Positions 12,908-39,073 of a stretch of DNA of 64,000 nt are shown one piece after another. A model generated the notes under the pieces. That model saw only the letters and a list, made by a program, of their open reading frames with translations, ran no database searches and had not been told where the DNA came from. The stretch comes from a virus. Its lineage: Duplodnaviria; Caudoviricetes. The translations under genes were made by a program, and so were the position numbers. The stretch spans positions 64,001-128,000 of IMG/VR virus record IMGVR_UViG_3300031998_000003. The stretch is one strand, 5' to 3'. The first letter of the stretch is position 1. The number at the start of each line of letters is the position of its first letter.

Positions 12908-13410
12908 TTTGATTTGTCCTCCTTATTATTCAATTCATTCAGTTTAGTTTCCTTCAGAGCAAGTAGTTCTTCTAACCATCGAACCCTCTGCCAATCCAGT
13001 TCGCTATTCTCAAAACTGAAACCTAGAACCATTTTATCATTTTCGATTGTTCTTTTCAGTTCATCAATGTCTTCAATGAGACGATTGGCATCTTGTAAAA
13101 TACCTTCTGTTGTGATCATTATCTGATCATGTTTACTGGAAGCGATGTACTTGATCCAGACTTCTTCGTTTTTGATATCCTTATCCATAATACGAAGTTG
13201 AATAATCGGTGCTCGTTCACCCAAGACATTGAAATCCCAGAATAAAGGTTCACCATTTTTCGAATATACGCATTGCTCAAGTATAGCAGCATAACTTTGC
13301 CTAAGGACAATCTCGCTGAGATCAATACCTTCTGTCTGTAAAACCTGACAGCGCAATCGGTTATCCAAGAACTTTATGAGATAAAAATCTCCTCGTTTTG
13401 ATTCAGTCAT
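12904..13410 (-). CDS. Hypothetical protein (beta-rich domain plus coiled coil)
   Basis: RGDFYLI...LRIMDKDIKNEEVWI. Confidence 0.6.
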   Translation of the reverse strand: MTESKRGDFYLIKFLDNRLRCQVLQTEGIDLSEIVLRQSYAAILEQCVYSKNGEPLFWDFNVLGERAPIIQLRIMDKDIKNEEVWIKYIASSKHDQIMITTEGILQDANRLIEDIDELKRTIENDKMVLGFSFENSELDWQRVRWLEELLALKETKLNELNNKEDKSK

Positions 13411-13691
13411 GATTCGCTATTCTCCATTGATTCTTCACAGGCTTCATCAAATTCTTCCTCTTCGGATTTGGATGTCAACTCTCCGACACATTCGACGGCG
13501 ACTTTATATGCATTCTCGAAGTTTGCATCTGTACCGATCGACTCGTCTTTATACCTAGAACTCATGTCTGCAAACCGAACGGTCCAACCATTCGGACCAG
13601 CATCAATACGCACGGACAATCCATACTTATCCACGAAATGTTCAGTCCGTTCAATTTCAGATACCGGCATCATGCCGAAAAATCTTTTCAT
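13407..13691 (-). CDS. Hypothetical protein
   Basis: SD AAGGAGG; packed operon. Confidence 0.65.
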   Translation of the reverse strand: MKRFFGMMPVSEIERTEHFVDKYGLSVRIDAGPNGWTVRFADMSSRYKDESIGTDANFENAYKVAVECVGELTSKSEEEEFDEACEESMENSES

Positions 13692-13706
13692 TATGATTTA
13701 TCCTCC

Positions 13707-14510
13707 TTAGTTTTTATATGGTTTTGTCAAACCCCTGCGTGTAAAGAGCCTGTGGAAATCATTGATACTGATCTTCATTTCACCAATACGGATATACTCA
13801 ATTTTTAGTTCCCTGAGATATTTGTTTGTATACGGAAACCAACAACAGGGATATGCCTCATTCAGTGCGATATCAGCGATCCAATAGAAATCATCTTCTG
13901 TGAGTGGATGATCTCCATCAGCTTCCCAGTCCTTGTAATTGTTTCGCATATCCATCCAACCAATCTCGAGAGCACCTTCCAGCAGTGTTGGAACATATCT
14001 CACTCGATCAATCAATTGCATCCAATGTGGAAACAATATGATCCTCCTGCACTTCGGACATGTCACGAATGGATATCGATGATATGGGAAATGATTGAGT
14101 AACCTGGCATTCAGTGTTTGATACATATCGATACTGTTCAATTTGTCGCGAAGATCAGTATAACTGATCGGCGAAGTCTGATGACAGTAGATACACTTCA
14201 TTGTGAACCGATGCCTTTCGAATGGCGTCATATATCTGACATAGGGAGGATACCTGACCGGATCACGACCAGGTATTACTTTCTTACGAAGATCCTCAAT
14301 GTCCAAATACACCATAATTTTGAAGTCATCTTCTTTTGAAAATTCTTTAAACGGATTTGTGAGGTATGGAATGACGAATGTCCTGTTTGGGCTAAGTCCG
14401 TACTCATCGTTCATTTTGACCTTTTCTATAGGAACGTCACTCTTCGGAATCGGAGTTGCCATTGTCATCCTCCTTTTCAAATAATGTGGCATGATGTTCA
14501 AGAATATCAC
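13707..14510 (-). CDS. Zn-ribbon-containing hypothetical protein
   Basis: CIYC...CPKC; likely start near MATPIP. Confidence 0.6.
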   Translation of the reverse strand: MIFLNIMPHYLKRRMTMATPIPKSDVPIEKVKMNDEYGLSPNRTFVIPYLTNPFKEFSKEDDFKIMVYLDIEDLRKKVIPGRDPVRYPPYVRYMTPFERHRFTMKCIYCHQTSPISYTDLRDKLNSIDMYQTLNARLLNHFPYHRYPFVTCPKCRRIILFPHWMQLIDRVRYVPTLLEGALEIGWMDMRNNYKDWEADGDHPLTEDDFYWIADIALNEAYPCCWFPYTNKYLRELKIEYIRIGEMKISINDFHRLFTRRGLTKPYKN

Positions 14511-14883
14511 CAGATCCTGTCACAAACTGTCGATCGTTTGATATCGGGTTATTCTTTTCAGCATGATCGACCGCGTTGAAATACGTGTTGAGTGTTTCGA
14601 CTTCCTCAAACGATTGCATCGGTTTTGTAAGACCGATATCGAGATTAAGCGGTTCAATCTCTTCAGCAAGAGTCTCGTGATATTCAAAGACCGCTTCGTC
14701 TTCTGTCATTTCAATCTTGTCAAAATTGAAGAAGTGTGGTGGAAGTGAATTAATAAAATCCGCTGCAGCTTGTTCAAGGGTAACACCCAGCGGAAGTTCA
14801 CTCCGTTTGATTACATGTGTAATTTTGTCCACTCTTATCACCTTCATCAAAGTCGAGTTTAACATATCCATTATCGATTTCAC
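14437..14883 (-). CDS. Hypothetical protein
   Basis: ORF in packed operon. Confidence 0.55.
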   Translation of the reverse strand: MKSIMDMLNSTLMKVIRVDKITHVIKRSELPLGVTLEQAAADFINSLPPHFFNFDKIEMTEDEAVFEYHETLAEEIEPLNLDIGLTKPMQSFEEVETLNTYFNAVDHAEKNNPISNDRQFVTGSGDILEHHATLFEKEDDNGNSDSEE

Positions 14884-15154
14884 TCTTCAACACACGGATA
14901 TACTTCCGTGTGTTCGATAGCTTGATGTCGAATGCCCATACAGACATGTCAGGACACGGTACCGTTGACATGAGTTCACACGGATACCACACACCTGTCG
15001 TCAATCCATAGTTCTGCATGATAGCAACATATTTGTCTTCATATGGATTGTGATCAGGTGTCGGAATCTCGTGATATGTATCTCTATCACATATCATGAA
15101 TCGCACATTGTGTGTATCATGTTTTGCAGATATCAAATCCATAAAATTTAACAT
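14798..15154 (-). CDS. Hypothetical protein, possible recurring beta-rich domain
   Basis: GVWYPCEL...IRVLKSEIDNGYVKL. Confidence 0.55.
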   Translation of the reverse strand: MLNFMDLISAKHDTHNVRFMICDRDTYHEIPTPDHNPYEDKYVAIMQNYGLTTGVWYPCELMSTVPCPDMSVWAFDIKLSNTRKYIRVLKSEIDNGYVKLDFDEGDKSGQNYTCNQTE

Positions 15155-15455
15155 CTCCTTTTGGTGATATACCGATTCTGGCTTCGGTTGTTACATCGGG
15201 ATGTTGAGCAATATCAACATGTGCCTGTGTAGGATGGTCAATTTCACCTAACCATTTTCCTTCTTTGATCAATCGATCATGACGCTTTTCGAAGTCAGCA
15301 ATGGCATCTGATATAAATTCCGGAGAATATATGCGCCCATTCCGGTTCTTATATCTGATAACTTTCTTGCGAATGAATCTTTTGTATTCGTAGCCATGGA
15401 TGAGTCCATGTCTTTTCGCAAGTCTATTAAGTTTCTTACGTTTCCGCCAATTCAT
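15117..15455 (-). CDS. Basic-leader protein carrying a prohead-protease-like fragment
   Basis: MNWRKRKKL leader; NRNGRIYS...LGEIDHP as in T4 gp21-type proteases. Confidence 0.65.
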   Translation of the reverse strand: MNWRKRKKLNRLAKRHGLIHGYEYKRFIRKKVIRYKNRNGRIYSPEFISDAIADFEKRHDRLIKEGKWLGEIDHPTQAHVDIAQHPDVTTEARIGISPKGDVKFYGFDICKT

Positions 15456-15882
15456 TCAAGCACCCCCTTCTCTCACAGAACTCTTTCAATTTTGGAAGCA
15501 GTGTCGAATTGATGTAGTCCTCGCGCAGATCATACCAATCATTGTATTTTGACTCAAAGTACTTTGCCTCCTCGAAATCATTCATGAAGTCAGTATTATC
15601 TTCTGCAAATCGATACATCAGATATCTCTGTTTTAACGTCATCTCTCTCAGATGCTCCATCAGAGCTCCAACAAGATGACGTTCAATGCGATCCTTGTTC
15701 TCCGGTTTTCCACAATCCGCAAGCGTCGCATTGATACATGCAATATCCAAGTTTTCTTCATCAACAACGACATGTGCAAGACCACCAGACGAACATCCAT
15801 CCAGTGTATAAATCGTCCATGTTAACATGAGACAAATTGGCATGTTGGGATGACACGGTACACGTTCAATATTTGCATTCAT
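15436..15882 (-). CDS. Hypothetical protein
   Basis: SD GGAGG; GGLAHVVVDEENL motif. Confidence 0.65.
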   Translation of the reverse strand: MNANIERVPCHPNMPICLMLTWTIYTLDGCSSGGLAHVVVDEENLDIACINATLADCGKPENKDRIERHLVGALMEHLREMTLKQRYLMYRFAEDNTDFMNDFEEAKYFESKYNDWYDLREDYINSTLLPKLKEFCERRGCLNELAET

Positions 15883-16089
15883 TTTTATTCATCCTCCATG
15901 TATTTCGATTCTATGATGAGAATCATCAATTTCGGTTTTATAACCTTCATCAAGATCTAAACATCTTTCATCCAGATGTGCACCATGAGGATGATATATT
16001 TCATCACACACGAATTCCAGATCATAGTCCCCATACCCTTTTTCAATAAGCCCTTGCATGAGCTCAACGATTTTCCGAACTCTCATTCT

Positions 16090-17082
16090 TCATTTTTCGT
16101 CCTTTCTGTTGTAGTGGTTATTGATGTTCGCCATCATCAGATACTCGTTGATCTTCAACTTAAGTACATCATACCATCTGTCAGTTGGAAGATGCTCACA
16201 GTCGACCGCGTTGTATATCATCGGATACGGTAAACGTACAAAAGTTCTTGGATCAAGTTGAAGAATATCCGTCTGATGACTCGTGTGTGGTATATCGATA
16301 CGAATCAGACCATTATCGAAACATGTCAACCACATACTTGCTGGGTTATATGCTCCACTACAAGTCCACGTTCGTCCCCAGTATACTTCGAACTCATCTT
16401 TGGCGAATGTACTGAAAAATGATTTGATTCCATTAGTCTGACCAATAACGGTCGGAAGATAACGTTTGTCAAGTTCTGCAGCCATAACATTGAGAATCTG
16501 AATCAGACCAATTGAAAACAAATACCGTCCATTCAGCATAGCTTCTTTCTTCATTCGTTCACCGGAATCATCCATCATTTCACCGATGAGATATGGTGGC
16601 CAGATATCCATCTCTTTCTCAATGTCTTTGACATAGTCAGTGATCATCTTATCTCTTTGCTCTTCTCTCGAGCAATTGTAATTATTCCGTCCAAGCTCGA
16701 ATTCAATTTCGTTTTTGATATCGAAATATGTGTGGAACGGTTGATCTTTGTCAAGCTCTTTGAGCATTTCAGACTTCTTGAATCCCATACACTGTTCAAC
16801 CCAATCCGGATCAGCACAGCTCAGATGATATATCCGTTCGTTGAGCATGAGCATTTCCATCGCTTTCGGATCAATGATACATAAACCCTGGTTGTATGAT
16901 AGATACACGAACAGAATCTGAATGTCAGGATTGTCCGGATCTGCAGGTTTCGGGTCGAGTCTCCGGAATCTAATCAGCGTGTATGGATCCCAGTAGTGGG
17001 CTGGATAATCATGAACATACGACGCATTATACCTCTTTTCACAGAGATACTTATACAACGCGCAAAAGTATAGACGATTCAT
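16090..17082 (-). CDS. Hypothetical protein
   Basis: 330-aa ORF, SD AAGGAGG. Confidence 0.7.
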   Translation of the reverse strand: MNRLYFCALYKYLCEKRYNASYVHDYPAHYWDPYTLIRFRRLDPKPADPDNPDIQILFVYLSYNQGLCIIDPKAMEMLMLNERIYHLSCADPDWVEQCMGFKKSEMLKELDKDQPFHTYFDIKNEIEFELGRNNYNCSREEQRDKMITDYVKDIEKEMDIWPPYLIGEMMDDSGERMKKEAMLNGRYLFSIGLIQILNVMAAELDKRYLPTVIGQTNGIKSFFSTFAKDEFEVYWGRTWTCSGAYNPASMWLTCFDNGLIRIDIPHTSHQTDILQLDPRTFVRLPYPMIYNAVDCEHLPTDRWYDVLKLKINEYLMMANINNHYNRKDEK

Positions 17083-17432
17083 TCGTCATCCTCCTTCTCA
17101 TTATCCCATGGACGGCATACTGTCAAATTCACAGCCCCATAGTAATTCATATGATCAGCTGTGTCGATGTCGATATCCTTGACCCATTCAAGGAATCTCG
17201 GATAAGTGTCGTCCTCATCGTTGTTGCTCACGTTCAGAAAATGTGCAGACCAAGTTTCTGAGAAAGCAAACCATAGTTTCTCGAGTGTCATCAAATCACA
17301 GTTGATCTTGATATGATCGGCTTCGAGAAAGTTGACAAGCTTTTTCATGTCAGCCGGAAATTCGAAGTTACACTCTTCAAACGGTGTTGGTGGAAATTCA
17401 AGACATTTCATTTCTGAATACCTCCTAACCAT
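17079..17432 (-). CDS. Hypothetical protein
   Basis: ORF in packed operon. Confidence 0.6.
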   Translation of the reverse strand: MVRRYSEMKCLEFPPTPFEECNFEFPADMKKLVNFLEADHIKINCDLMTLEKLWFAFSETWSAHFLNVSNNDEDDTYPRFLEWVKDIDIDTADHMNYYGAVNLTVCRPWDNEKEDDE

Positions 17433-17800
17433 TCCTGATATCTGTTATACACTTCCTGAAATACGTCGGTTGTACATTCACCATTGTGAAAGTCCGCTGT
17501 GAAACTCAGTGTGATATTCGATGCATCATCAGATGATGTCATTGCTGATGGATAACACCCCTGTGCAATCTGCATATGCTTGATAGCTTTTCCAGATTTG
17601 CTAGTTGTGATAAGCAACATGTCAACTCCAGTTCCAGCTTTATGTGCTTCGGAACGATGTTTGCCTTCGACAAACCATTCGTAGAACGTTTGCCCACCGT
17701 GCTTCATACCGAAATCAAGAATCCGTTTCCATTCCTTGAATTTGGAATATCTGAAGTATCCACGGCGTTTTTCAAGTTTCTTCTTTTGGCGTCTGTTCAT
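17408..17800 (-). CDS. Basic-leader family protein
   Basis: MNRRQKKKLEKRRGYFRY leader; SD GGAGG. Confidence 0.7.
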   Translation of the reverse strand: MNRRQKKKLEKRRGYFRYSKFKEWKRILDFGMKHGGQTFYEWFVEGKHRSEAHKAGTGVDMLLITTSKSGKAIKHMQIAQGCYPSAMTSSDDASNITLSFTADFHNGECTTDVFQEVYNRYQEWLGGIQK

Positions 17801-18098
17801 TTTTCAAATCCTCCGGTGTAGGAAATAACCCATTCCATTCAGGTTTGAGTTTTGTAATCCCCATGTAGTCAACAAATCCAAGTTGTTCTTTCCGTGTTCG
17901 ATCACACATTTCACTTACCGCTGATTCAATCTTTTTACCGATCAATACTCGCCAAGCTTCACTTCGTTTCTCTTTGCAATATGTCATATATAGGTCGAGA
18001 TGACATAGCCCATAAATTACACTTCTCCATTCATAATAATGGGATTTTCCATGCGCATGTGCGATTTTACGAAGCTTCTTACGTTTTCTCCAGTTCAT
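17772..18098 (-). CDS. Basic-leader family protein
   Basis: Start reassigned to MNWRKRKKLRKIAHAHG after SD GGAGGGG. Confidence 0.7.
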   Translation of the reverse strand: MNWRKRKKLRKIAHAHGKSHYYEWRSVIYGLCHLDLYMTYCKEKRSEAWRVLIGKKIESAVSEMCDRTRKEQLGFVDYMGITKLKPEWNGLFPTPEDLKNEQTPKEET

Positions 18099-18117
18099 TA
18101 TAACCCCTCCAAGAGTA

Positions 18118-18480
18118 TCAATCAAAATTGTGTTTGACGATAATATTTGTTGGTTTGTCAATTTTGATTGATTGAGATGTGGATTCGTCATTTGTAAATT
18201 GAACGATCATCTCGTTCTGTTGTTCAAGATCGTCAACGTTCTTCATAACTTTTGCATACCATTCTTCCTGAGTCATACAATACTCAGGAAGTCCGGCTTT
18301 GCAAAACATTTGATTCATTCTGGGAAGAACCTCTGACCAGTGAATCAAACAGTTCTTGAGTGCATACTCGAATGCGGCGTAATGAATACAAAACTTCAGA
18401 TTACGTTTGTATTCCCAGTAATGGGTGTATCCATAATGATGAGCGATTCTACGCTGTTTCTTACGTTTCCGCCAATGCAC
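18118..18480 (-). CDS. Basic-leader family protein
   Basis: MHWRKRKKQRRIAHHYG; SD GGAGG, GTG start. Confidence 0.7.
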   Translation of the reverse strand: MHWRKRKKQRRIAHHYGYTHYWEYKRNLKFCIHYAAFEYALKNCLIHWSEVLPRMNQMFCKAGLPEYCMTQEEWYAKVMKNVDDLEQQNEMIVQFTNDESTSQSIKIDKPTNIIVKHNFD

Positions 18481-19272
18481 TCAATCCACCTCCATTCCCA
18501 TCGCTTCACATGAATTACCGGCAAATCGTTTGCGTCGATCAATAAGATCATCAAGATGTTCCTCAATACGTTCACCATCAGTAGGACCCAGATCGATCGG
18601 ACCGAGATGAATCGGTTCGGACGGAGTCTCTTCAACACCTTTGATGGACATGTTACCATATCGACCGACAACTTTACGTAAATCAATCGTAGCACTTGAA
18701 GGATACTCAATCGCAGAACCACCCAGGATATGCTCATCAGCCATAATCTGCCTACGCATGCGATCTGTATCACCATGCTCAATTGTCAGCTTAGCTGACA
18801 CCATTTCAGGCATCTCACGAATAGCTGACAGTTTGGCTGATGTCATCGATTTATGACCGTCAAGCGGACCCTTTGGAAGCGGTACTGCAAGCTCATCTGG
18901 TTTGTATCCGTTCTTGAAAGAATCCTCATCGATGGAGAATGAATGGATTTTATCACCGACCATTCGCATGCTCATTGATGGAATCACGTCAGGTTTCACA
19001 ATATCAGCATATCTACCGAAACTGGAAACGACACAATTTTCCAATTCCGGCATTCCGTACCGTCTATATTTCCTGTTGAAAATCTTTGTCGGAGCTTTCG
19101 TGAATAAAACGGTTTTTGCATAATTAAACATATACTGCTTAAAAGCATACGGACCGTCGTTATTGACAACAGGTCCAAAGATATCGTACAGAATCTTCAC
19201 CCGCAATTTATAATCGCGATAATGAAAGAATCCTGCACGATTCTCAAGTTTCTTCTTTTGACGCTTGTTCAT
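18481..19272 (-). CDS. Basic-leader family protein
   Basis: MNKRQKKKLENRAGFFHY leader. Confidence 0.7.
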   Translation of the reverse strand: MNKRQKKKLENRAGFFHYRDYKLRVKILYDIFGPVVNNDGPYAFKQYMFNYAKTVLFTKAPTKIFNRKYRRYGMPELENCVVSSFGRYADIVKPDVIPSMSMRMVGDKIHSFSIDEDSFKNGYKPDELAVPLPKGPLDGHKSMTSAKLSAIREMPEMVSAKLTIEHGDTDRMRRQIMADEHILGGSAIEYPSSATIDLRKVVGRYGNMSIKGVEETPSEPIHLGPIDLGPTDGERIEEHLDDLIDRRKRFAGNSCEAMGMEVD

Positions 19273-19822
19273 TTGCCTTTCCTCCATTCAGTATATTTCT
19301 GATCTCATCTTTCAAATGTCCTGCAGCCCAGTTGTCATCAACAAACGAATCGATCAACGCATTAATTTTTTCGATCATCACATCGGTTTTCGGAATATTG
19401 ATACCGATTTTCTTAGCAGTCGCCTCGGTAATCACTTTTTCCAGATTTGGATCGTATTGCTTACAAATCCGCAACCATTCACCGGAAAGTTGATGATCCA
19501 TAAATATTGAACTGAATTTACTTGCTCCCGGATAATTGTTTCTTATATAATGCAACATGATATCGTTGACGATATCTTGGTTCGGTATTCCAAATACACA
19601 AGCGGTAACTTCTCCTTTATAAGCGTCAATCCAGCATGGGTGCTCATTCAAAGACTCAAAGTCAATCTTGTTCCATTCCTCTGTACTGTAATCTTTGAAG
19701 TTGATACGCTGTGTGCGGTTTTTGTCAACAAACAATTCAAATGTGTCATGCCACATCACAACCCGAAGTTTTACTCGAGTAGGGGAAACCCTTTCAAGGA
19801 ATGTTACAAATGATATTGCCAT
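19244..19822 (-). CDS. Hypothetical protein
   Basis: SD GAAAGGAG. Confidence 0.65.
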   Translation of the reverse strand: MAISFVTFLERVSPTRVKLRVVMWHDTFELFVDKNRTQRINFKDYSTEEWNKIDFESLNEHPCWIDAYKGEVTACVFGIPNQDIVNDIMLHYIRNNYPGASKFSSIFMDHQLSGEWLRICKQYDPNLEKVITEATAKKIGINIPKTDVMIEKINALIDSFVDDNWAAGHLKDEIRNILNGGKANEQASKEET

Positions 19823-19834
19823 GAGTTTCTCCTT

Positions 19835-20119
19835 TCAGAATTGATGGAATGTGACGGTTTCATTCGATGGATCCACATTAATGTTGTCTGTGCAAATTGT
19901 TGTTTTACACGGATACATTCCATTGTTAGTCATATAACTGTTGGATTTGAACTCATAGTTTCTGTCGGAAAAGTCAAATACACGAAACGGGAGCACAACG
20001 GCTCCCGTCCCATCCATGTTTGTTTCACGTTTTGCTTCACAACAAAACTTAATTTGATAATTGCCAGCACCCGTTGTCTCAAGTGATTCAAGAATTGCTT
20101 TCAATTGACTCACTGTCAT
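19835..20119 (-). CDS. Hypothetical protein
   Basis: MTVSQLKAILE-type phage N-terminus; SD AAGGAGG. Confidence 0.6.
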   Translation of the reverse strand: MTVSQLKAILESLETTGAGNYQIKFCCEAKRETNMDGTGAVVLPFRVFDFSDRNYEFKSNSYMTNNGMYPCKTTICTDNINVDPSNETVTFHQF

Positions 20120-20441
20120 GTTCTTCAGCCTCCTTTATCACCGCTGCTTTCCAGTGAAAATAGTCCTTCCATCCTGGACCAAATGCCACATCCATCAGCC
20201 GTTCAAACATCTTTGGATTATGTTCTGCTATTTCTCTGAGTGTGCTTTTCTCAGTAATAACAAACTCTTCTTTCCGCTTAACAGGTTTCGGTTTTTCAAC
20301 AGGTTCGATGATTATGCGAAACTTCTGACTCTTCGGAAATTTCTCCATGAATCGATACAGACGACCCTGAAGAGAATTGATAAATGACGGTTTGAAAATC
20401 GTCGTTTTGTCAATCGTTGCAATTTCAATACGTTTATCCAT
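20088..20441 (-). CDS. Hypothetical protein
   Basis: SD GGAGG. Confidence 0.6.
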   Translation of the reverse strand: MDKRIEIATIDKTTIFKPSFINSLQGRLYRFMEKFPKSQKFRIIIEPVEKPKPVKRKEEFVITEKSTLREIAEHNPKMFERLMDVAFGPGWKDYFHWKAAVIKEAEEHDSESIESNS

Positions 20442-20717
20442 TTAAACCTCCATTGGGACTTTTACAAAGATTTGTCCCGTGTTGAGATCTGTATATGGAA
20501 TCAGTGTCTCAATAAGTTGATCTGCTTCATCAAAGAATACAACACTAAGAGTCTTTTCGTCACAGTTCTTGATGAGACAATGATACCATGTTCGCGGTTT
20601 GATATTCCATGTTTCCGGAATATCTTTTACGAACGCAAGTGTGACATAATTGCGATAACAGAACTCTGCAAACCCAAGTGGTGCTTTAACCATCATTGTC
20701 TTCATCCTCCGATTCAA
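20442..20717 (-). CDS. Hypothetical protein, possible recurring beta-rich domain
   Basis: WYHCLI...LIPYTDLNTGQIFV. Confidence 0.55.
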   Translation of the reverse strand: MNRRMKTMMVKAPLGFAEFCYRNYVTLAFVKDIPETWNIKPRTWYHCLIKNCDEKTLSVVFFDEADQLIETLIPYTDLNTGQIFVKVPMEV

Positions 20718-21300
20718 ATGACTTAATTGTCACTGGACGATCAATAGTCGTTCTGAGGAAATCCCTACATGTTGTGAGCACAATATCCGTGAACAATTTT
20801 ATGTCCCCATCTGCGTCATGTTGGTTGATTGGATTCCCATCATAATCGTAAACATCCATTGCAAGTTTCCATTCACGATCCACAATATTGATTCTGACGA
20901 TAACATGCGTTTTGATTGGTTTAAATGATATGACGATGTTGAACCTGTCAGGGTCGTCAGCATTCTCTTGCAATGACAATGACGCGATTGTGCCATCATC
21001 GTTGAACCCAACATAGGTATCACCGTGTTCATCGGTGACATCATCTTTTACACTAGCAACCATACGGCAACCGTCGATCAGATTCCAGGTGTTACCCTCT
21101 GCACCAACCAGATCTCCAGTATGAACAATGAACAGCTCTCGCTTACCAGCGTCAGCCTCTTTGATGTTGTCAGCCAGGTCGAACATGATCTTATGATATA
21201 GCATGTTTGACAGTGAAAAACCTGTCGCAAAAGAATTGGTAGATTTCATTATTTCCTCCTTATTCCAATCCGCATAATACGAATTCTGTGATTCGAACAA
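20686..21300 (-). CDS. Hypothetical protein
   Basis: Likely start MKSTNS after SD AAGGAGG. Confidence 0.65.
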   Translation of the reverse strand: MFESQNSYYADWNKEEIMKSTNSFATGFSLSNMLYHKIMFDLADNIKEADAGKRELFIVHTGDLVGAEGNTWNLIDGCRMVASVKDDVTDEHGDTYVGFNDDGTIASLSLQENADDPDRFNIVISFKPIKTHVIVRINIVDREWKLAMDVYDYDGNPINQHDADGDIKLFTDIVLTTCRDFLRTTIDRPVTIKSFESEDEDNDG

Positions 21301-21671
21301 TCTTTTGATTTTTTGCCGTCAATCAACATATGGGGTTTGATACCAAAGATGCTTTTGTTCTCATCGGTGATACCAAGATGCTGTTGAACGGGAACAACCG
21401 AAGCATCGTTCGAACGTACAGATGTCACGAATCCTACACAGTTATGCATGTCAGGAATCATGTTGTCACTGGGTGTACGCATGACAGGAATACCTTTTCC
21501 ATGTGTCATGATTTCCTGAAACACCGCATCATTTTCAATATACTCAGTAAACATCCCGCTGTAAGTTTGTGATACTCGCAGCGGGATAGAATATGTTAAC
21601 TGAGCAATGTTTCCTTCACTCATTTGTTTTCCTTTCCGGAACAATACATTTCCGAATCCAAATTTTGTCAC
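21249..21671 (-). CDS. Hypothetical protein
   Basis: Likely start MSEGNI after SD GAAAGGA. Confidence 0.55.
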   Translation of the reverse strand: MTKFGFGNVLFRKGKQMSEGNIAQLTYSIPLRVSQTYSGMFTEYIENDAVFQEIMTHGKGIPVMRTPSDNMIPDMHNCVGFVTSVRSNDASVVPVQQHLGITDENKSIFGIKPHMLIDGKKSKDCSNHRIRIMRIGIRRK

Positions 21672-22317
21672 TCATCAGCTGTTCAATTGTGATCTTGTAA
21701 CCGGTCGAACCAAAGACATCACCGATAACCCAGATGCCGTCCGAAACGACTGAATCGATCATTGCATATGACTCAGTGCCCTTGATGTCTGGTAATGTAC
21801 CTTCGATCCACTCGATGAAAATCGGAGTTCCCTGTTTGAAATAATCCTCATCGACAACCAGTTTTGTCTGGAAAAGGATACCTTTGTATTGATCGGCATC
21901 TTTCGTGACACCTTTCACAATGTCTTTGAACCATTTCTCATTATCGAGATTTATGATTCGCAAACCTGATAGATTTCGGCATTTCTCCTCGAAGGCTCTT
22001 TCCATCGGTAACGTTACAGTTCCATCGATGTCAACAGATTTTTTGGTTAGATCGAGAAGTTCATCAGCTTCTTTTTTCATATCCATCATATATCGAGAGA
22101 ATGTCTCTTTATCGATTTTGGTGTTTGATGGAACATCCATGATGTCATATTGGAGTACGAGTCTGGTCGCACAACTCCAGCAAAGTGGTATTCCCATGAA
22201 GAGATGAATCTCATCGTCGGGCCACCAAGGTGAATGTGATTTCCGATGGCATCCACATACGAAACAATCATGTCGATTGATTGTCTTTGGATATGATAAT
22301 TCTTTCGGCATTGTCAA
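21616..22317 (-). CDS. Zn-finger plus recurring beta-rich domain protein
   Basis: CFVC...CWSC; DYFKQGTPIFI...ITIEQLMSDKIWI. Confidence 0.65.
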   Translation of the reverse strand: MTMPKELSYPKTINRHDCFVCGCHRKSHSPWWPDDEIHLFMGIPLCWSCATRLVLQYDIMDVPSNTKIDKETFSRYMMDMKKEADELLDLTKKSVDIDGTVTLPMERAFEEKCRNLSGLRIINLDNEKWFKDIVKGVTKDADQYKGILFQTKLVVDEDYFKQGTPIFIEWIEGTLPDIKGTESYAMIDSVVSDGIWVIGDVFGSTGYKITIEQLMSDKIWIRKCIVPERKTNE

Positions 22318-22805
22318 TCCTCCTCAATTGAATTATTCTTTGACGGTGTCCACCAGATATTGTACGCACGCAGAATCTCGATACCTATAGACAGCTTGCG
22401 ATATTCCCAATTGACTTGTGACGATCTGATATTGCTTCCAACAAGTTCATGAATTTTCTCATATAGTTCGTCACAGATTTTCTGGATTTGCTCAGGACTT
22501 CTTCCACGATAGAAATCATGAAGTTTCTCATCTTCAGCAGTGAATTTCTTCATCCGAAAATAGAAGTCCATATCAATCGGCTCTGTTGCTGATCCGTCAT
22601 AAAGTTTAATATGCTCGAGAAGTGTGTCACGATCAATGTCATCATTCGTAACGAATGAGACTTCTGTCCTAACAGGATTATCGAGCATTCCTGTCGATGA
22701 TTGGTTGATACACCAGAGTTCAATTTTCATTGTAGATCTCCTCCCATAATGATTTAAGATTCTGATACAGTTCCTCGGAAGGTTTGATAGGTTCCTGAGG
22801 AACAC
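22314..22805 (-). CDS. Hypothetical protein
   Basis: Likely start MKIELW after SD GGAGG. Confidence 0.6.
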   Translation of the reverse strand: MFLRNLSNLPRNCIRILNHYGRRSTMKIELWCINQSSTGMLDNPVRTEVSFVTNDDIDRDTLLEHIKLYDGSATEPIDMDFYFRMKKFTAEDEKLHDFYRGRSPEQIQKICDELYEKIHELVGSNIRSSQVNWEYRKLSIGIEILRAYNIWWTPSKNNSIEED

Positions 22806-23361
22806 TCAGTCGATATCCATGAAACGGATAATATGTTATTGTATCTCCGTCACGTTCGCATTTGGCCTGTGAACTGTCAATGTATTCCAATCGTTCATTG
22901 ACGCGTTCAATAGCGCGTTTGAATTCGTTGAGATATTGCGGATGGGTCATCTTGATATATACATCGTCAAAGCTTTTACAACCATAAAGCGTTTTGAATA
23001 TATCCAGGATCCATGTATCGACCTCTCGTGCTGCAGCATTTGAAGCTTCAATCAATTGACTTTCAAGTTCGTGAGCAATCCCATAAACATGCTCGGATGC
23101 TTCGAAAGCTTCCTTTGCAGCCTTGAAATCTTCTGCAGTAAATTTCGGAAGTTTTGAACGTACAAATGTAAAGTCGCCAATCTTGATGTCTGGTAATGTG
23201 GCATCGTCTTTCGGTTCGGCTGTTGACAAAGCTTTTTCCAGTTCTTCCATTTTAAGCAAGACAGCCTTGAAACCATTGCCTTTATACGGTCTTGAATGAA
23301 ACTCCATATCCGAAACAAAAAGTTTCAGATGTTGCCATGCGGATTCGTAATTAATTGGCAT
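22720..23361 (-). CDS. Hypothetical protein, first gene after putative early promoter
   Basis: Start reassigned to MPINYE after SD AAGGAGG. Confidence 0.65.
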   Translation of the reverse strand: MPINYESAWQHLKLFVSDMEFHSRPYKGNGFKAVLLKMEELEKALSTAEPKDDATLPDIKIGDFTFVRSKLPKFTAEDFKAAKEAFEASEHVYGIAHELESQLIEASNAAAREVDTWILDIFKTLYGCKSFDDVYIKMTHPQYLNEFKRAIERVNERLEYIDSSQAKCERDGDTITYYPFHGYRLSVPQEPIKPSEELYQNLKSLWEEIYNEN

Positions 23362-23408
23362 TTGATATTCCTCCTTGTTTTCACACAACACTGTGTGTTT
23401 TATCATGA

Positions 23409-23418
23409 TAATAATATA
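23409..23418 (-). promoter_or_regulatory. Putative early (virion RNAP) promoter TATATTATTA
   Basis: Same motif recurs just downstream of terminators at several operon heads. Confidence 0.6.
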
Positions 23419-23436
23419 TTCGTAAAGAAAAAAAGA

Positions 23437-23458
23437 ATCGCGGGGTAATCCCCGCGAT
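23437..23458 (-). terminator. Intrinsic terminator
   Basis: ATCGCGGGG-TAAT-CCCCGCGAT with A7 tract (U tract on minus strand). Confidence 0.8.
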
Positions 23459-23464
23459 CCCATA

Positions 23465-34391: not shown

Positions 34392-35609
34392 TTATTTACG
34401 TTGGGACTTCTCGAATTGCTCAATTCGTTGAAGTTTCCGTTTGGCTTTTGCAAGCTGATCTTTTGACAACTTGCCAGAATCAATCTGTTGTTTCAGTTGC
34501 TCCTTAGAAAGTTGACGTTGTTTCGTTGCATTTGCATCGAGTTGCTTTTGACGTTTTTCATATTGCTGTTGTGCATATTCACCACGCTTCTGATGCGCGA
34601 ATACCATTTCATCTTCATCTCTAGGAACTAATTCAAGTTGTCCTCTGGCAGTACGAGCTTTATTTATCCGAGCAGCATCGCGTTGATTATTTTTTGCATC
34701 GCGTCTTAAATGACGAAGCTGTGTATCACCTTTTGCATATCTGTTATACAATTCACTATAAGCATCTGCGTCATATTCAGCGGGATCTAAATCATGGTCT
34801 GTCTCAATTTTGTCCCAAAAATCATCTGGCATATTATCAAGATATGATTTTGCTTCGTTACGCCGGCGCAGACCTTCCGAACCAGATTTCCAAAGCTCCT
34901 TACCACTTTCAAAATCATATACTTTATCTGGTGCTTGTGCAGCATGTCCTTCTTCATGCTTATATGTTGCATTTGCGTAAGCTGGCTTCTGTTGAATGCT
35001 TCTTGGTTGCATATTGATACTGTCCGTATCCACTTGTCCATATCGCTTCAGTTTACCATTAACCCTCATTTGATATGCTGCATCAACATGTTGGTTAGCT
35101 GCATGTGGATTGATTGTAAATGGCACACGTTTCTTTTGTCCGGGGTTATTCTTATCATTGATATCCGTGAGAATTGTTTCTGTTTTGGGGTCATATCCGT
35201 TTTCACGAAGGAATTTGTTCATACGGTTCCGTTCTTTGTTTGAGCCGATCTTTCCAGCGGATATGCGCTTGCCAGGACGATTCGGATCTTCGATAGTGTT
35301 AGTTTTAGGATCATACTTGTGTTTTTTCAAATATTCGTCATATGGACCATAAGCTGCTTCCTGAATAATGTCATCGTCATATGAGTCAAGCAGAATACCA
35401 AACTCGTTGATAGCTTCGTCATGTGCGTCAGGGTCATCGAATAACGCATTATGATATTCGGATACGTAGAACAAAGAGTCTCCAAGCTGAACAAACCAGT
35501 CACATTCTTCGAAGACTTCATCTTCTACGATGGTAGACTCTGCCTCAACGACAGAGTCCACCGGATAATCATAATGAGATTTACAAAATCTCTTTGGTAT
35601 ATCAGACAT
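34392..35609 (-). CDS. Probable virion protein with zincin metallopeptidase-like motif
   Basis: Acidic leader ending IIQEAA; HEEGH plus downstream EYDADAY. Confidence 0.6.
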   Translation of the reverse strand: MSDIPKRFCKSHYDYPVDSVVEAESTIVEDEVFEECDWFVQLGDSLFYVSEYHNALFDDPDAHDEAINEFGILLDSYDDDIIQEAAYGPYDEYLKKHKYDPKTNTIEDPNRPGKRISAGKIGSNKERNRMNKFLRENGYDPKTETILTDINDKNNPGQKKRVPFTINPHAANQHVDAAYQMRVNGKLKRYGQVDTDSINMQPRSIQQKPAYANATYKHEEGHAAQAPDKVYDFESGKELWKSGSEGLRRRNEAKSYLDNMPDDFWDKIETDHDLDPAEYDADAYSELYNRYAKGDTQLRHLRRDAKNNQRDAARINKARTARGQLELVPRDEDEMVFAHQKRGEYAQQQYEKRQKQLDANATKQRQLSKEQLKQQIDSGKLSKDQLAKAKRKLQRIEQFEKSQRK

Positions 35610-38600
35610 AATGTCCCTCCTTGTGATGGTATCCCGAGAATCTTGCTGGAATCACAAAACTCTCTTGTTTAACATTCTCAGCTTCTCCGTCGTAAATCAT
35701 TTTACCAGACATAATTGTCTGCATGAATTCTTTGATGGGAGTACCGTAATCGATTTTTGTATCGGTGTAATCCCATACACCAAAGTTACCGGATTTCCCT
35801 TCATAATCAGCCATGCATTCTGCAACGTAATCAAAGATGTCATTGAGTTTGTCAAATGTCTTTTGACGTTCATAACCCCATTCATCAGTGACACGTTTGA
35901 ATGCTTGTTCGATGTATATGTACTTTCCATTGAGTGAAACAACACAAATAGTATGGGTTCCGAGCATCTCGTTCTTTTTATCGGTGAATGACATGAAGTA
36001 TTTTTTGTATGCTACACCGAAGGCTTCGAGGTATCCTGCTTCATATTCGACCATGTCGTAGCAGTTACCACCGCCAGCTTCATCGACTTCCTGACCAGTA
36101 TGGAATACCCAGTACTTTTCATAATCTGATTCAGAAACGTCTCCGCTTTGCAATCTACCATTTCTGATCAGACCATACTTGAACTTCTTCAGATCGATAC
36201 AAAGATCAGCAATGACATTTTCGGGAGAGTAATCGAACTTCGTTCCTTTTGCAAGGACCTTCGGTTTGACAACCCAGTGCCATTTGTATGTGAAGTAATT
36301 GCGGTCACCCTTTTCGCCTTTGGATGTTGGGACCACTGGCTTTCGTTTCACATTGGATACCTGATCGACACGAATAACACCGTACAGCTTCATGCGAACT
36401 GGTTCCATGATCCAAACTTCGCGCGTGACATTTGCATCATACACGAGCTTATCCTTAACCAGTTCTTTGTTGGTCTTATGCTTATACTGTTTCCACGGTT
36501 TCTCTGGAATGTATACATAAAGCTTGTCGAACTGATCTGGATTTTGTCTCGGAAGATTGACGGTGATTCCGTTCAGACAACCTTCGATAGATGTTGAGAA
36601 GCAGATGCGTGGAGTCGTGTTATCCTCAAATCCAGTTTCTTCCGGATTGTATGGATCCAGATAGTCAGGAACACGGGGTTTCCATACCTGACCGTCAGCA
36701 TGTTTCTCCGGTGTTACATGAAATACCATCTTATCTGAATATGGATTAACACCATTCTTGAGATCCTGAAAGGCACCTTCTTGGGTGATCAGCGGTTTTT
36801 CTAACATCCTATCAGTTATAAGTAAGCCGCCTAGACCACCGCCCATTTCAGTTATTTCGATATTTTTGTTTATCAAGTATCCGAATCCATGCTCGTCATC
36901 ATATTTGAATTCACACTCAACAAGGAAAAATGGTATTCCGGAATCAGTATAATCGAATATGATTAATGTTGGCTTAATGACATCCATGGCATCAGACATT
37001 TTTAAGCCTTCAATTTCCGAAATATTATCACCATCACATTCTTTGTCGTATGATATCATCAAAAGCTTTGCTTCTTCGAAACAAGCTTTATTGAAAATAT
37101 CCTTGGATTTTGTGATGATATCAGGAATCATCTGACTGAGATCCTCGTATACAGTATCATGGTCAAAACTATCATTCAATGTTTCGACTGGTACAGTGAC
37201 AGAATGTCCAAAATAGTTTAACGAAACCTGACCAATCGTCACAAATTGAGCATTCTCTTGTATTGTACCTTCTTGGAATGGAACGCAACCATATGTTTTA
37301 CCGCATGATTCACATGTATAGATTGGCTCGCCTTTCATTGCGATTGATATATTACCACCACAATCACATTTCTTCATGACAGCCATACCATCGTCATTGA
37401 ATCCAAGGACATCGTCTTTATATTTTGCGAAGTGACCCGATTCAAAAACATTCGTGGATTCTTGTGTCAGTTTAGAACGATCGTACTTCATCCAGTATTC
37501 TTCATGAGGCGGATCATACCATACACCTTTCTTATAGATCTCGAAACCATAATCGAGATACAGATGTACTGCCGGTTCATTATCACAACGAACTGTGAGA
37601 TCTTCACCACCAAATCGGCGTACAGCATCATCAATCAGAATCCATCCATATCCTTGACGACGATAGCTTGGGGTGACTTCAATATTGAAAATGAATCCTT
37701 TATTCTTTTTGGTAGTATGCACAAATGCATGACCGATGGCTTCACCAGTTTCACGGTTAACAAGGAATTCACCATTGGTCGCTTTGTGCATGTCTTCCCA
37801 GTATTGACTCAATTCAGGATCTTCTTTCAGATACTTCAAACCTTCTTCAGATGGCACAAGCACACGTCTGAATCTGGGATCAGAATCATCTCCAGGAGCC
37901 AACATTCCATGGTCACGCATGTACGGAATGTCCAAGGAATTCTTCCATGGTATCACATTCGCAGGATTGTTGACATCGTTGAAAAGTTCCGTGTTAAACG
38001 GTCTTGTGTCCAGACGTACCATATATGAGTTCTTGAAGTTTATATCTCTGAAGTAGTTATGTGATGAATCTGATTCATCGATTTCTTTCAATAGATCAGC
38101 TTGTGCATCCATTATGTATGCATAATCATTGATGTTTACAACCAGAAATTCATGACCGCCTGTTGAATCTTTCCAGTTGACGTGTACATACCATCTTGAA
38201 TCAACATTGCCACGAACCTTTTTGATGACATCTCTCTGAGACACGAAAGATTCCTTAATCGGATTCATAACAATATCTTCACCGTGGTGATGTCCGTTAC
38301 CGGGTAATGCTGGATCACGGGGTGAATAGATCGGGCGTGGTAATGCATTGATTCCACGATACCGTGCTTCAGCACACCATGTACACAGTTCACAGTTCTG
38401 ATTTCCTGTCGGTGGTTTGGAATCCTTTTCAACTTGAGCTGAGATTTCCTTCACGATCTTCTGGGCAAATAGAAATGGTTCCGCTTTCATATCCCGTTTA
38501 CCGATCGCTTCTGCATGTGCAACACCAATTCTTTTGACACGAGATAACAACTCGTCATCTTCCTCAGTTGTCATGGAAACACCTGACGACATTTGACTGG

Positions 38601-38955
38601 AAGTTGCTGCAAGCTTTTGAGCAAGCTCCTCATTTGCTTCATCATAATATGGAGCCATTGTACGAGGTGGTGAATTACCAATACTCGTACCGTCACTCAT
38701 CGGTGGTACTTGTTCGGTTACACCAGCAACTTTGTTAGCTGCGTGTAGTTTTGATGTATCCATACCCTCTTCCTCTGCACGATGACGAATTTTGCGTGCA
38801 AGCGCTTTTTTCTCTTCTGGTGTAATATCACCATTATTGATGAGATTGTTTGCAGATTTGATCTCATGAGGATTACGGAGAGGGTATTTATCTTTACCGG
38901 GAACACCCATTTCACTGTCAGGTATTTCCCGCCGTTCTTTTGCGGATATTGACAT
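35602..38955 (-). CDS. Polyvalent multi-enzyme protein (DUF6582, papain-fold, GNAT, Zn finger, DUF6985-like, ART-like, transglutaminase-like)
   Basis: KERREIPDSEMG..KYPL; QNCELC...GGHEF...MDAQ; IEVTPSYRRQGYG...NEPAVHLY; DDEHGFG; FHVT..PRVP..PRICFSTSI; GNCYD...HT...YIE. Confidence 0.75.
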   Translation of the reverse strand: MSISAKERREIPDSEMGVPGKDKYPLRNPHEIKSANNLINNGDITPEEKKALARKIRHRAEEEGMDTSKLHAANKVAGVTEQVPPMSDGTSIGNSPPRTMAPYYDEANEELAQKLAATSSQMSSGVSMTTEEDDELLSRVKRIGVAHAEAIGKRDMKAEPFLFAQKIVKEISAQVEKDSKPPTGNQNCELCTWCAEARYRGINALPRPIYSPRDPALPGNGHHHGEDIVMNPIKESFVSQRDVIKKVRGNVDSRWYVHVNWKDSTGGHEFLVVNINDYAYIMDAQADLLKEIDESDSSHNYFRDINFKNSYMVRLDTRPFNTELFNDVNNPANVIPWKNSLDIPYMRDHGMLAPGDDSDPRFRRVLVPSEEGLKYLKEDPELSQYWEDMHKATNGEFLVNRETGEAIGHAFVHTTKKNKGFIFNIEVTPSYRRQGYGWILIDDAVRRFGGEDLTVRCDNEPAVHLYLDYGFEIYKKGVWYDPPHEEYWMKYDRSKLTQESTNVFESGHFAKYKDDVLGFNDDGMAVMKKCDCGGNISIAMKGEPIYTCESCGKTYGCVPFQEGTIQENAQFVTIGQVSLNYFGHSVTVPVETLNDSFDHDTVYEDLSQMIPDIITKSKDIFNKACFEEAKLLMISYDKECDGDNISEIEGLKMSDAMDVIKPTLIIFDYTDSGIPFFLVECEFKYDDEHGFGYLINKNIEITEMGGGLGGLLITDRMLEKPLITQEGAFQDLKNGVNPYSDKMVFHVTPEKHADGQVWKPRVPDYLDPYNPEETGFEDNTTPRICFSTSIEGCLNGITVNLPRQNPDQFDKLYVYIPEKPWKQYKHKTNKELVKDKLVYDANVTREVWIMEPVRMKLYGVIRVDQVSNVKRKPVVPTSKGEKGDRNYFTYKWHWVVKPKVLAKGTKFDYSPENVIADLCIDLKKFKYGLIRNGRLQSGDVSESDYEKYWVFHTGQEVDEAGGGNCYDMVEYEAGYLEAFGVAYKKYFMSFTDKKNEMLGTHTICVVSLNGKYIYIEQAFKRVTDEWGYERQKTFDKLNDIFDYVAECMADYEGKSGNFGVWDYTDTKIDYGTPIKEFMQTIMSGKMIYDGEAENVKQESFVIPARFSGYHHKEGHYV

Positions 38956-38982
38956 AACTACGCTCCTTTCCGGAATTAAAGT

Positions 38983-38994
38983 TACAGAAACGTT
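38983..38994 (-). promoter_or_regulatory. Putative late promoter AAC-N7-TA
   Basis: AACGTTTCTGTA on minus strand, downstream of terminator 39016-39039. Confidence 0.5.
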
Positions 38995-39073
38995 TTCGAT
39001 TAACATACAAAGATCAGGCGGGGGCAAACGCCCCCGCCTCATCTTCCGTGTTAATTAGATCATCAAGATAGCA

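Follow-up and report, generated by a model that had tools for sequence, protein, structure and literature searches.

We analysed a window of 64,000 nucleotides of phage DNA (bases 64,001-128,000 of the 248,669-bp record IMGVR_UViG_3300031998_000003) in which five genes encode proteins that begin with similar basic N-terminal leaders. The genome is a single virus contig with a G+C content of 42% and was judged 92% complete. The split RNA-polymerase genes of syntenic relatives and an early promoter motif of the AR9 type are both consistent with an AR9-like jumbo phage. We find that the leader is genuine: it is a conserved protein module, portable and without a catalogued family, and it is neither a DNA signal nor a chance match.

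A common leader on five minus-strand genes

The leader genes sit within a long run of minus-strand genes (Table 1). P0005, P0003, P0002 and P0004 are consecutive (19272 down to 17408), P0001 lies four genes further on, and the five leader copies span 4.2 kb. An earlier, sequence-only reading of the window had proposed these open reading frames and had placed four of them in a row. Both proposals hold, with all five genes on the minus strand, starts at 15455, 18098, 18480 (GTG), 17800 and 19272, and the translations that were given for them. The same reading had allowed that the true starts might lie elsewhere, but the starts are upheld by a GGAGG-like Shine-Dalgarno sequence 7-10 nt upstream of each. 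Gene calls for orthologues of the leader proteins on other contigs begin at the same first residue, and where P0003 has GTG, its orthologue on contig L014 has ATG. A longer upstream ATG is possible for P0002 and P0005, but Shine-Dalgarno spacing and many orthologue gene calls favour the shorter starts.

Table 1. Leader genes and transcription signals of the locus, in window positions
Feature	Position	Strand	Description
P0001, 112 aa	15117..15455	-	type-1 leader, codons 1-25 (15455-15381)
P0004, 130 aa	17408..17800	-	type-2 leader, codons 1-22 (17800-17735)
P0002, 108 aa	17772..18098	-	type-1 leader, codons 1-25 (18098-18024); body without known family
P0003, 120 aa, GTG start	18118..18480	-	type-1 leader, codons 1-25 (18480-18406); body without known family
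P0005, 263 aa	18481..19272	-	type-2 leader, codons 1-22 (19272-19207); mosaic body
AR9-type early promoter core, TATATTAT-N6-G	23404..23418	-	directly after the terminator
Strong intrinsic terminator	23434..23461	-	12-bp stem with 8 G-C pairs, T run; ends the preceding transcription unit

The sharing of the leader by five genes is far beyond chance. Pairwise BLASTP similarity between the proteins is confined to the first ~25-30 residues (E 1e-10 to 4e-3), which bears out the claim of a shared basic N-terminus, and it extends weakly beyond them in two pairs, P0002-P0004 (58 aa, E 1e-4) and P0003-P0005 (76 aa, E 5e-4). A regular expression and a 31-position leader profile each find the same five sites, and only these, in the whole 248,669-bp genome, and the profile matches them with E values of 4e-18 to 5e-14. 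A protein-language look-up of the leader gave no match.

The leader occurs as two subtypes, as had been proposed. Type 1 has Gly at position 17 (P0001, P0002 and P0003) and type 2 has Gly at position 14 (P0004 and P0005). Across cluster representatives, the invariant or nearly invariant positions of type 1 are Trp3 to Leu9, Ala13, His16, Gly17, His20, Tyr21, Tyr22, Glu23, an aromatic residue at 24 and Lys or Arg at 25. Those of type 2 are Met1, Arg4, Lys7, Lys8, Leu9, Arg12, Gly14, Phe16, His17, Tyr18, Asp20, an aromatic residue at 21 and Lys or Arg at 22. A conserved turn of the form His-Tyr-x-Asp/Glu-aromatic-Lys/Arg comes after the invariant Gly. In type 2, Arg4 and Arg12 do not vary, yet positions 5-8 and 11 are mostly Lys. 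The net charge of the leader is +5 to +10, whereas the bodies behind it are near neutral or acidic.

Structure prediction suggests that the leader is not a free tail. In the AlphaFold model of P0004, a helix (residues 3-11) is followed by a loop (12-17) and a long helix (18-43), with a pLDDT of 83-91 in this part and 72 overall. The model of P0001 has a helix at 3-15, a loop and a helix at 22-32, with a pLDDT of ~75 there and a poorly modelled body. The leader is thus predicted to form a helix, a Gly-containing loop and a second helix that leads on into the body's first long helix. When the leader is projected on a wheel at 100 degrees for each residue (by hand arithmetic), residues 4, 7, 8, 11 and 12 fall within one ~140-degree arc, with Leu9 opposite. 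The first helix would then present a fixed basic stripe (Arg4, Lys7, Lys8 and Arg/Lys11-12) and a packing face. For P0004 modelled in complex with residues 1-60 of P0005, the score was 0.00 where the mark is 0.32, which speaks neither for nor against an interaction.

Selection acts on the leader peptide and not on its DNA. We counted substitutions between paralogues by the Nei-Gojobori method on leader codons and used non-homologous codons as a control. In every pair but one, leader pS is 0.55-1.2, as high as in the control codons; the exception is P0001 versus P0003, at 0.22. Leader pN is 0.15-0.46, compared with 0.57-0.84 in the control. The sequence-only reading had suggested a check of similarity between the 5' ends at the DNA level, and in the 40 nt upstream of the genes only the ribosome-binding site is alike. 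With synonymous sites saturated in the leader, the amino acids kept and the upstream DNA unrelated, it follows that the peptide is what is selected.

Leader DNA is also read in a second frame. Upstream genes stop 20-29 nt into the leader DNA of the next gene (17772-17800, 19244-19272 and 15436-15455, minus strand), so that unrelated proteins share similar short acidic C-terminal tails. For example, the last 9 codons of P0002 overlap the leader DNA of P0004 in a different frame. Tails of this kind, such as the end of P0002, recur in metagenomic relatives.

Exchange of bodies and turnover of the locus

The bodies behind the leader are not full-length paralogues of one another. The sequence-only reading had named homology along the full length as an alternative, but BLASTP similarity between the five proteins is N-terminal only, and a profile-profile comparison of seven leader-stripped body families gave no significant match. 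The top results of hhalign were a 47% probability over 26 residues and a 21% probability over 19 residues immediately after the leader in families F2 and F3, whose common part reaches ~45 N-terminal residues. Body lengths range from ~25 to ~290 residues, and some copies consist of the leader only. Searches of the five leader proteins against Pfam and PHROGs gave a single match, that of P0001 to a protease family. The body of P0004 is modelled as a long helix packed on a beta-sheet, and searches with this model in Foldseek (against the PDB), VIA-align and the ESM Atlas gave no clear relative; VIA-align reached at most Z 3.3 (a helix on a sheet, cystatin-like), and TM values in the ESM Atlas did not exceed 0.36.

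The leader, the segment behind it and the bodies recombine independently, as is evident from natural chimeras. P0083 consists of residues 1-63 of P0002 (84% identity) followed by a P0005-like C-terminus, and P0059 has the P0003 body behind a P0002-like N-terminus. P0066 combines a P0004-like body with a P0005 tail at its end. In P0111 to P0115 just the first 8 leader residues stand before the P0001 body, and P0047 and P0048 carry segments of the P0005 body without the leader, behind a different N-terminus. Orthologues of P0005 have gained or lost whole segments in the body while the leader is near-invariant. The portability of the leader that had been proposed is thus seen in nature, and because of these chimeras the proteins as a set cannot be dismissed as ordinary paralogues. 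The idea of variable cargo grafted onto a tag fares less evenly. Bodies do swap, but the leader is modelled as running into the body helix, and the body of P0001 is a truncated homologue of a prohead protease and no free-standing effector.

The P0001 body is homologous to the N-terminal half of a prohead protease like gp21 of T4, truncated and presumably inactive. P0001 matches phrog_207 with an E value of 7e-9 (46 of 519 profile positions), and two of its orthologues match with 1e-6 and 2e-5. Its score against PF03420 (Peptidase S77) is 19.8 bits, under the 27-bit cut-off, and tblastn gives weak, uniform matches to gp21 genes in 719 T4-like phages. BLASTP aligns it with P0127, the full-length protease of a relative, at E 6e-4. 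The His motif of P0001, GEIDHP, is nearly invariant in 21 orthologues and aligns with the His motif of P0127. P0001 has no Ser motif and ends ~37 residues past the His motif. The same stop before the Ser motif is found in 18 of 20 aligned orthologues, those that keep the C-terminal segment, and the body is kept at this truncated length in >20 relatives. Within the genome (92% complete), nothing but P0001 matches prohead-protease families, and a search there with P0127 found no homologue; one tblastn match to P0127 was discarded because it contains stop codons. We also dropped the idea of a split protease, in which the open reading frame downstream of P0001 would be the missing C-terminal half, since that frame has no protease match. 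Profiles of the P0001 and P0005 families had no match among solved structures, and T4 gp21 was not recovered.

The other leader proteins have no significant match to the prohead-protease family, and 16 relatives of P0005 have no match in PHROGs. In P0005 and P0037 a short motif aligns weakly with the Ser motif of the relative's true protease (E 1e-3; hhalign probability 10%). Some orthologues in the family of P0005 (18481-19272, minus strand), to which P0037 and P0022 belong, have an insert resembling the His motif and a duplicated copy of the Ser-like motif. These motifs may be remnants of a protease-derived ancestor.

Leader proteins are found in a group of related phages. The leader profile was run against 1.84 billion representative proteins and matched 38 clusters at E<=1e-3, 37 of them from residue 1. 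The exception is a weak match inside a 985-residue protein; the proteins of the other 37 clusters are small, 51-313 residues long, and continue in many different ways after the leader. Among cultured phages, neither megablast with the region nor tblastn with two leader segments found a relative. The leader is present in 2-6 copies on each of the related contigs of 150-280 kb, and both subtypes are present side by side in every genome. In the two related records that were searched from end to end, every copy falls within a single locus: 6 copies within 8.6 kb in a complete relative of 277,583 bp, and 4 copies within 4.2 kb in a 151-kb fragment of another relative.

Gene content in the leader locus is strongly different between relatives and includes truncated copies. 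The 277,583-bp relative has a stand-alone, leader-only open reading frame of 25 codons (L013:2692-2769, plus strand), which seems to be a scar left where recombination took place at the leader. In a 260-kb relative, the P0002 orthologue has a GTG start and is shortened to 58 residues (L005:10827-11003, plus strand), and the P0005 orthologue is shortened to 147 residues. These shortened orthologues show rapid decay and turnover inside the locus. In our genome, the block from 13000 to 23400 holds ~24 genes, none of which has a Pfam or PHROG assignment save the partial protease match of P0001; the ~20 neighbours of the leader genes gave no match in either database. This block is a hyperplastic accessory region, because its gene content differs strongly among related phages. 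In relatives it is flanked by a metallophosphatase/NADAR region and by thyX.

The leader genes are probably early genes. The sequence TATATTAT-N6-G has the core and spacing of the consensus for AR9 early promoters, which are used by the virion RNA polymerase (PMC5312081). The 10-mer TATATTAT has 13 exact copies in the genome, and G is found at the same spacing in all 13. The copy at 23404..23418 is the nearest promoter-like site upstream of the block with all five leader genes. We found no further early core and no strong terminator on the minus strand between this core and the leader genes, and for this reason the genes are probably transcribed early. Two relatives have early-promoter cores inside the equivalent loci. 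A candidate late promoter before P0002 (AACA-N6-TG) was rejected, as such motifs occur regionally at about the chance rate and this one is absent from a more distant relative.

Elsewhere in the window (35602-39042, minus strand) lies a gene for a 1146-residue protein with an acetyltransferase-like segment at residues ~417-509. A second segment of this protein has counterparts only in Klebsiella jumbo phages.

Possible functions of the leader

We tentatively favour the reading that early accessory proteins, which diversify, carry the leader as a portable N-terminal handle for a polyanion, with nucleic acid as the likeliest one, although we would put the chance of this reading at somewhat under even. 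Both the binding function and the ligand are matters that we infer. The role of address tag and the destinations that the sequence-only reading had named for it (ribosome, replication compartment, receptor) are conjectural. A shared handle for binding or targeting is suggested because the leader is strictly N-terminal, portable and conserved residue by residue, and because it combines a one-sided basic stripe with an aromatic turn on proteins of an accessory locus that is probably expressed early. A polyanion would be the most economical target because the positive charge of the leader is high. Small accessory proteins in one uncultured clade of AR9-like jumbo phages from the rumen have in common a polybasic-aromatic peptide of 22-25 residues, predicted to be a helix-loop-helix. 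Their genes lie together in one fast-changing, probably early-transcribed locus and diversify through exchange of the C-terminal bodies behind a constant N-terminus. The leader would then bring different bodies to the same polyanionic target, for which nucleic acid (phage or host DNA, or RNA) ranks first.

Several points weigh against this proposal. Classical specific RNA-binding arms are rich in Arg and the leader is rich in Lys, and clusters of basic and aromatic residues also bind acidic lipids and acidic proteins. There is no known nucleic-acid-binding family among the matches of the five leader proteins. A P0001 body derived from a prohead protease points to the capsid and away from nucleic acid. 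The body alignments are shallow, and some bodies could have a very old common ancestry. Finally, the case for early expression depends on one motif 4-8 kb upstream of the genes, and internal late promoters are possible.

Alternatively, the leader could be a capsid-targeting signal that, as in T4, loads diverse small proteins into the prohead core. They would be packaged alongside the DNA and reach the next host by injection, for instance to act in counter-defence. The internal proteins of T-even phages have this architecture, being diverse with only an N-terminal targeting sequence conserved (PMC3012670), and gp53 and gp54 of SPN3US are identical in their N-terminal 15 residues (PMC5694885). 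P0001 and its orthologues carry the N-terminal half of a gp21-like protease, giant phages are known to have "cryptic", truncated paralogues of the protease (PMC5694885), and lysines of T4 internal proteins contact the packaged DNA (PMC3012670), as would suit a Lys-rich peptide. The Ser-like motif of P0005 and P0037 would point the same way, but its alignment with the protease is not significant when profiles are compared. Prohead proteases cleave at (L/I)-x-E in T4 and at (S/A/G)-x-E in phiKZ-like phages (PMC5694885), but no conserved cleavage motif follows the leader: only P0001 fits S/A/G-x-E (with Gly-Tyr-Glu), the other type-1 leaders have Tyr-x-Glu, and the corresponding position in type 2 is mostly Asp, with Lys or another residue in a minority that includes P0004. 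In the models the leader forms a continuous helical unit with the body and not a detachable propeptide. The promoter ahead of the block is of the early type, and a profile search of the genome found no leader on the capsid, portal or RNA-polymerase subunits. We therefore regard capsid targeting as unlikely. The same handle might instead have another ligand, either a phage or host protein partner common to all the leader proteins or the acidic inner face of the membrane, to which it would bind as a peripheral basic-aromatic anchor. Conservation of the Gly, the His-Tyr pair, Leu9 and the type-1 Trp3 is stricter than charge alone needs, and the coexistence of two subtypes in each genome suggests two variants of a partner. 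Basic-aromatic clusters are at home on acidic lipids, but the leader has no hydrophobic or amphipathic membrane segment, no candidate partner was identified, and the neighbouring genes lack a family assignment. A ligand of this kind seems improbable to us.

Two further explanations would leave the leader without an addressing role. It might be the constrained N-terminal hairpin of a small gene that was duplicated in tandem and whose remainder has drifted, so that the proteins would be ordinary, fast-evolving paralogues. The genes are indeed tandem and co-oriented, similarity passes beyond the leader in P0002-P0004, P0003-P0005 and F2-F3, and the modelled leader is continuous with the first body helix. 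However, the P0001 body is the only one homologous to a prohead protease, bodies are exchanged behind one leader and one body is also found without it, and the range of body lengths, down to copies that are leader and nothing more, is hard to reconcile with drift, as is a leader that hardly changes where orthologous bodies gain or lose whole segments. We doubt that simple paralogy accounts for the leader. Alternatively, the 5' coding stretch might be kept as a nucleic-acid element (a recombination linker used in cassette exchange, a translation enhancer or the target of a small RNA), with the peptide as a by-product. Some features could be taken in this sense: upstream genes end within leader DNA in another frame and so acquire recurrent C-terminal tails, the leader-only frame of 25 codons and the truncated copies in relatives resemble recombination scars, and P0001 and P0003 have a low pS. 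Set against them are the saturation of synonymous sites with retention of amino acids in nearly all paralogue pairs, the unrelated sequences upstream save for the ribosome-binding site, and a residue-specific constraint over 22-25 codons, and we consider a nucleic-acid element very unlikely.

Precedents and implications

The architecture of the leader has a known precedent, although the module itself belongs to no catalogued family. The closest documented one is the capsid-targeting sequence (CTS) on the internal proteins of T4 (Mullaney and Black 1996, reviewed in PMC3012670 and PMC5694885). Like the leader, the CTS is a short, conserved and transferable N-terminal peptide on otherwise unrelated small proteins and has a link to the prohead protease. 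The leader has no sequence likeness to the CTS, and it differs in being a strongly basic peptide of 22-25 residues that is predicted to be helical and continuous with the body. It also differs in that no conserved cleavage site follows it and in that its genes lie behind an early-type promoter. P0001 has its own counterpart in gp117 of SPN3US, a truncated, cryptic protease paralogue (PMC5694885), in being a shortened gp21-like copy that many related phages retain. The two differ in their motifs: P0001 has lost Ser but not His, while gp117 reportedly aligns at Ser and Asp and not at His (PMC5694885). P0001 further differs from gp117 in having a basic leader and in lying in an accessory locus behind an early-type promoter.

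Other families resemble the leader proteins in part. Phage antiterminators (lambda N, P22 N and HK022 Nun) carry N-terminal peptides with an arginine-rich motif. These are, like the leader, basic helices of ~20 residues with an aromatic residue at the extreme N-terminus of small early phage proteins, where they act as a self-contained binding arm. In contrast, the leader is mostly Lys-rich, despite the invariant Arg4 and Arg12 of type 2, has a conserved Gly turn and an aromatic cluster after the helix, and is found on up to six different proteins per genome, whereas an arginine-rich motif belongs to one regulator. No cognate RNA hairpin has come to light for the leader, although no search was aimed at a repeated one. 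Rhs and CdiA toxins form polymorphic families with a constant N-terminus and swappable C-terminal modules. As in the leader family, their C-termini vary, and a single locus holds orphan or truncated cassettes along with recombinant chimeras. Their constant part is hundreds of residues long, not 22-25, and the leader proteins are cytoplasmic phage proteins in which we found no toxin or immunity features.

The leader might be a new, self-sufficient sorting signal for phage proteins, sufficient to deliver any protein to one place, either into the capsid for injection or onto a particular nucleic acid of phage or host, and used by these jumbo phages for effectors that are rapidly reshuffled. We think this possible but rather doubtful. 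If it were true, the T4 CTS would be the only earlier example of such a tag, and the leader could serve as a tool for cargo loading. Neither Pfam nor PHROGs has an entry for the leader, and cultured phages offer no counterpart. Even so, few features of this fast-changing accessory locus are as strictly conserved, across a whole clade of rumen jumbo phages. Even if it is merely the stable core of a paralogue family, it would still be a useful annotation marker for such genes. If it is a signal for sorting or binding, it would show how these jumbo phages steer an ever-changing complement of small proteins to a common target, mark which genes of no assigned function act together and provide a short, transferable tag for experiments.

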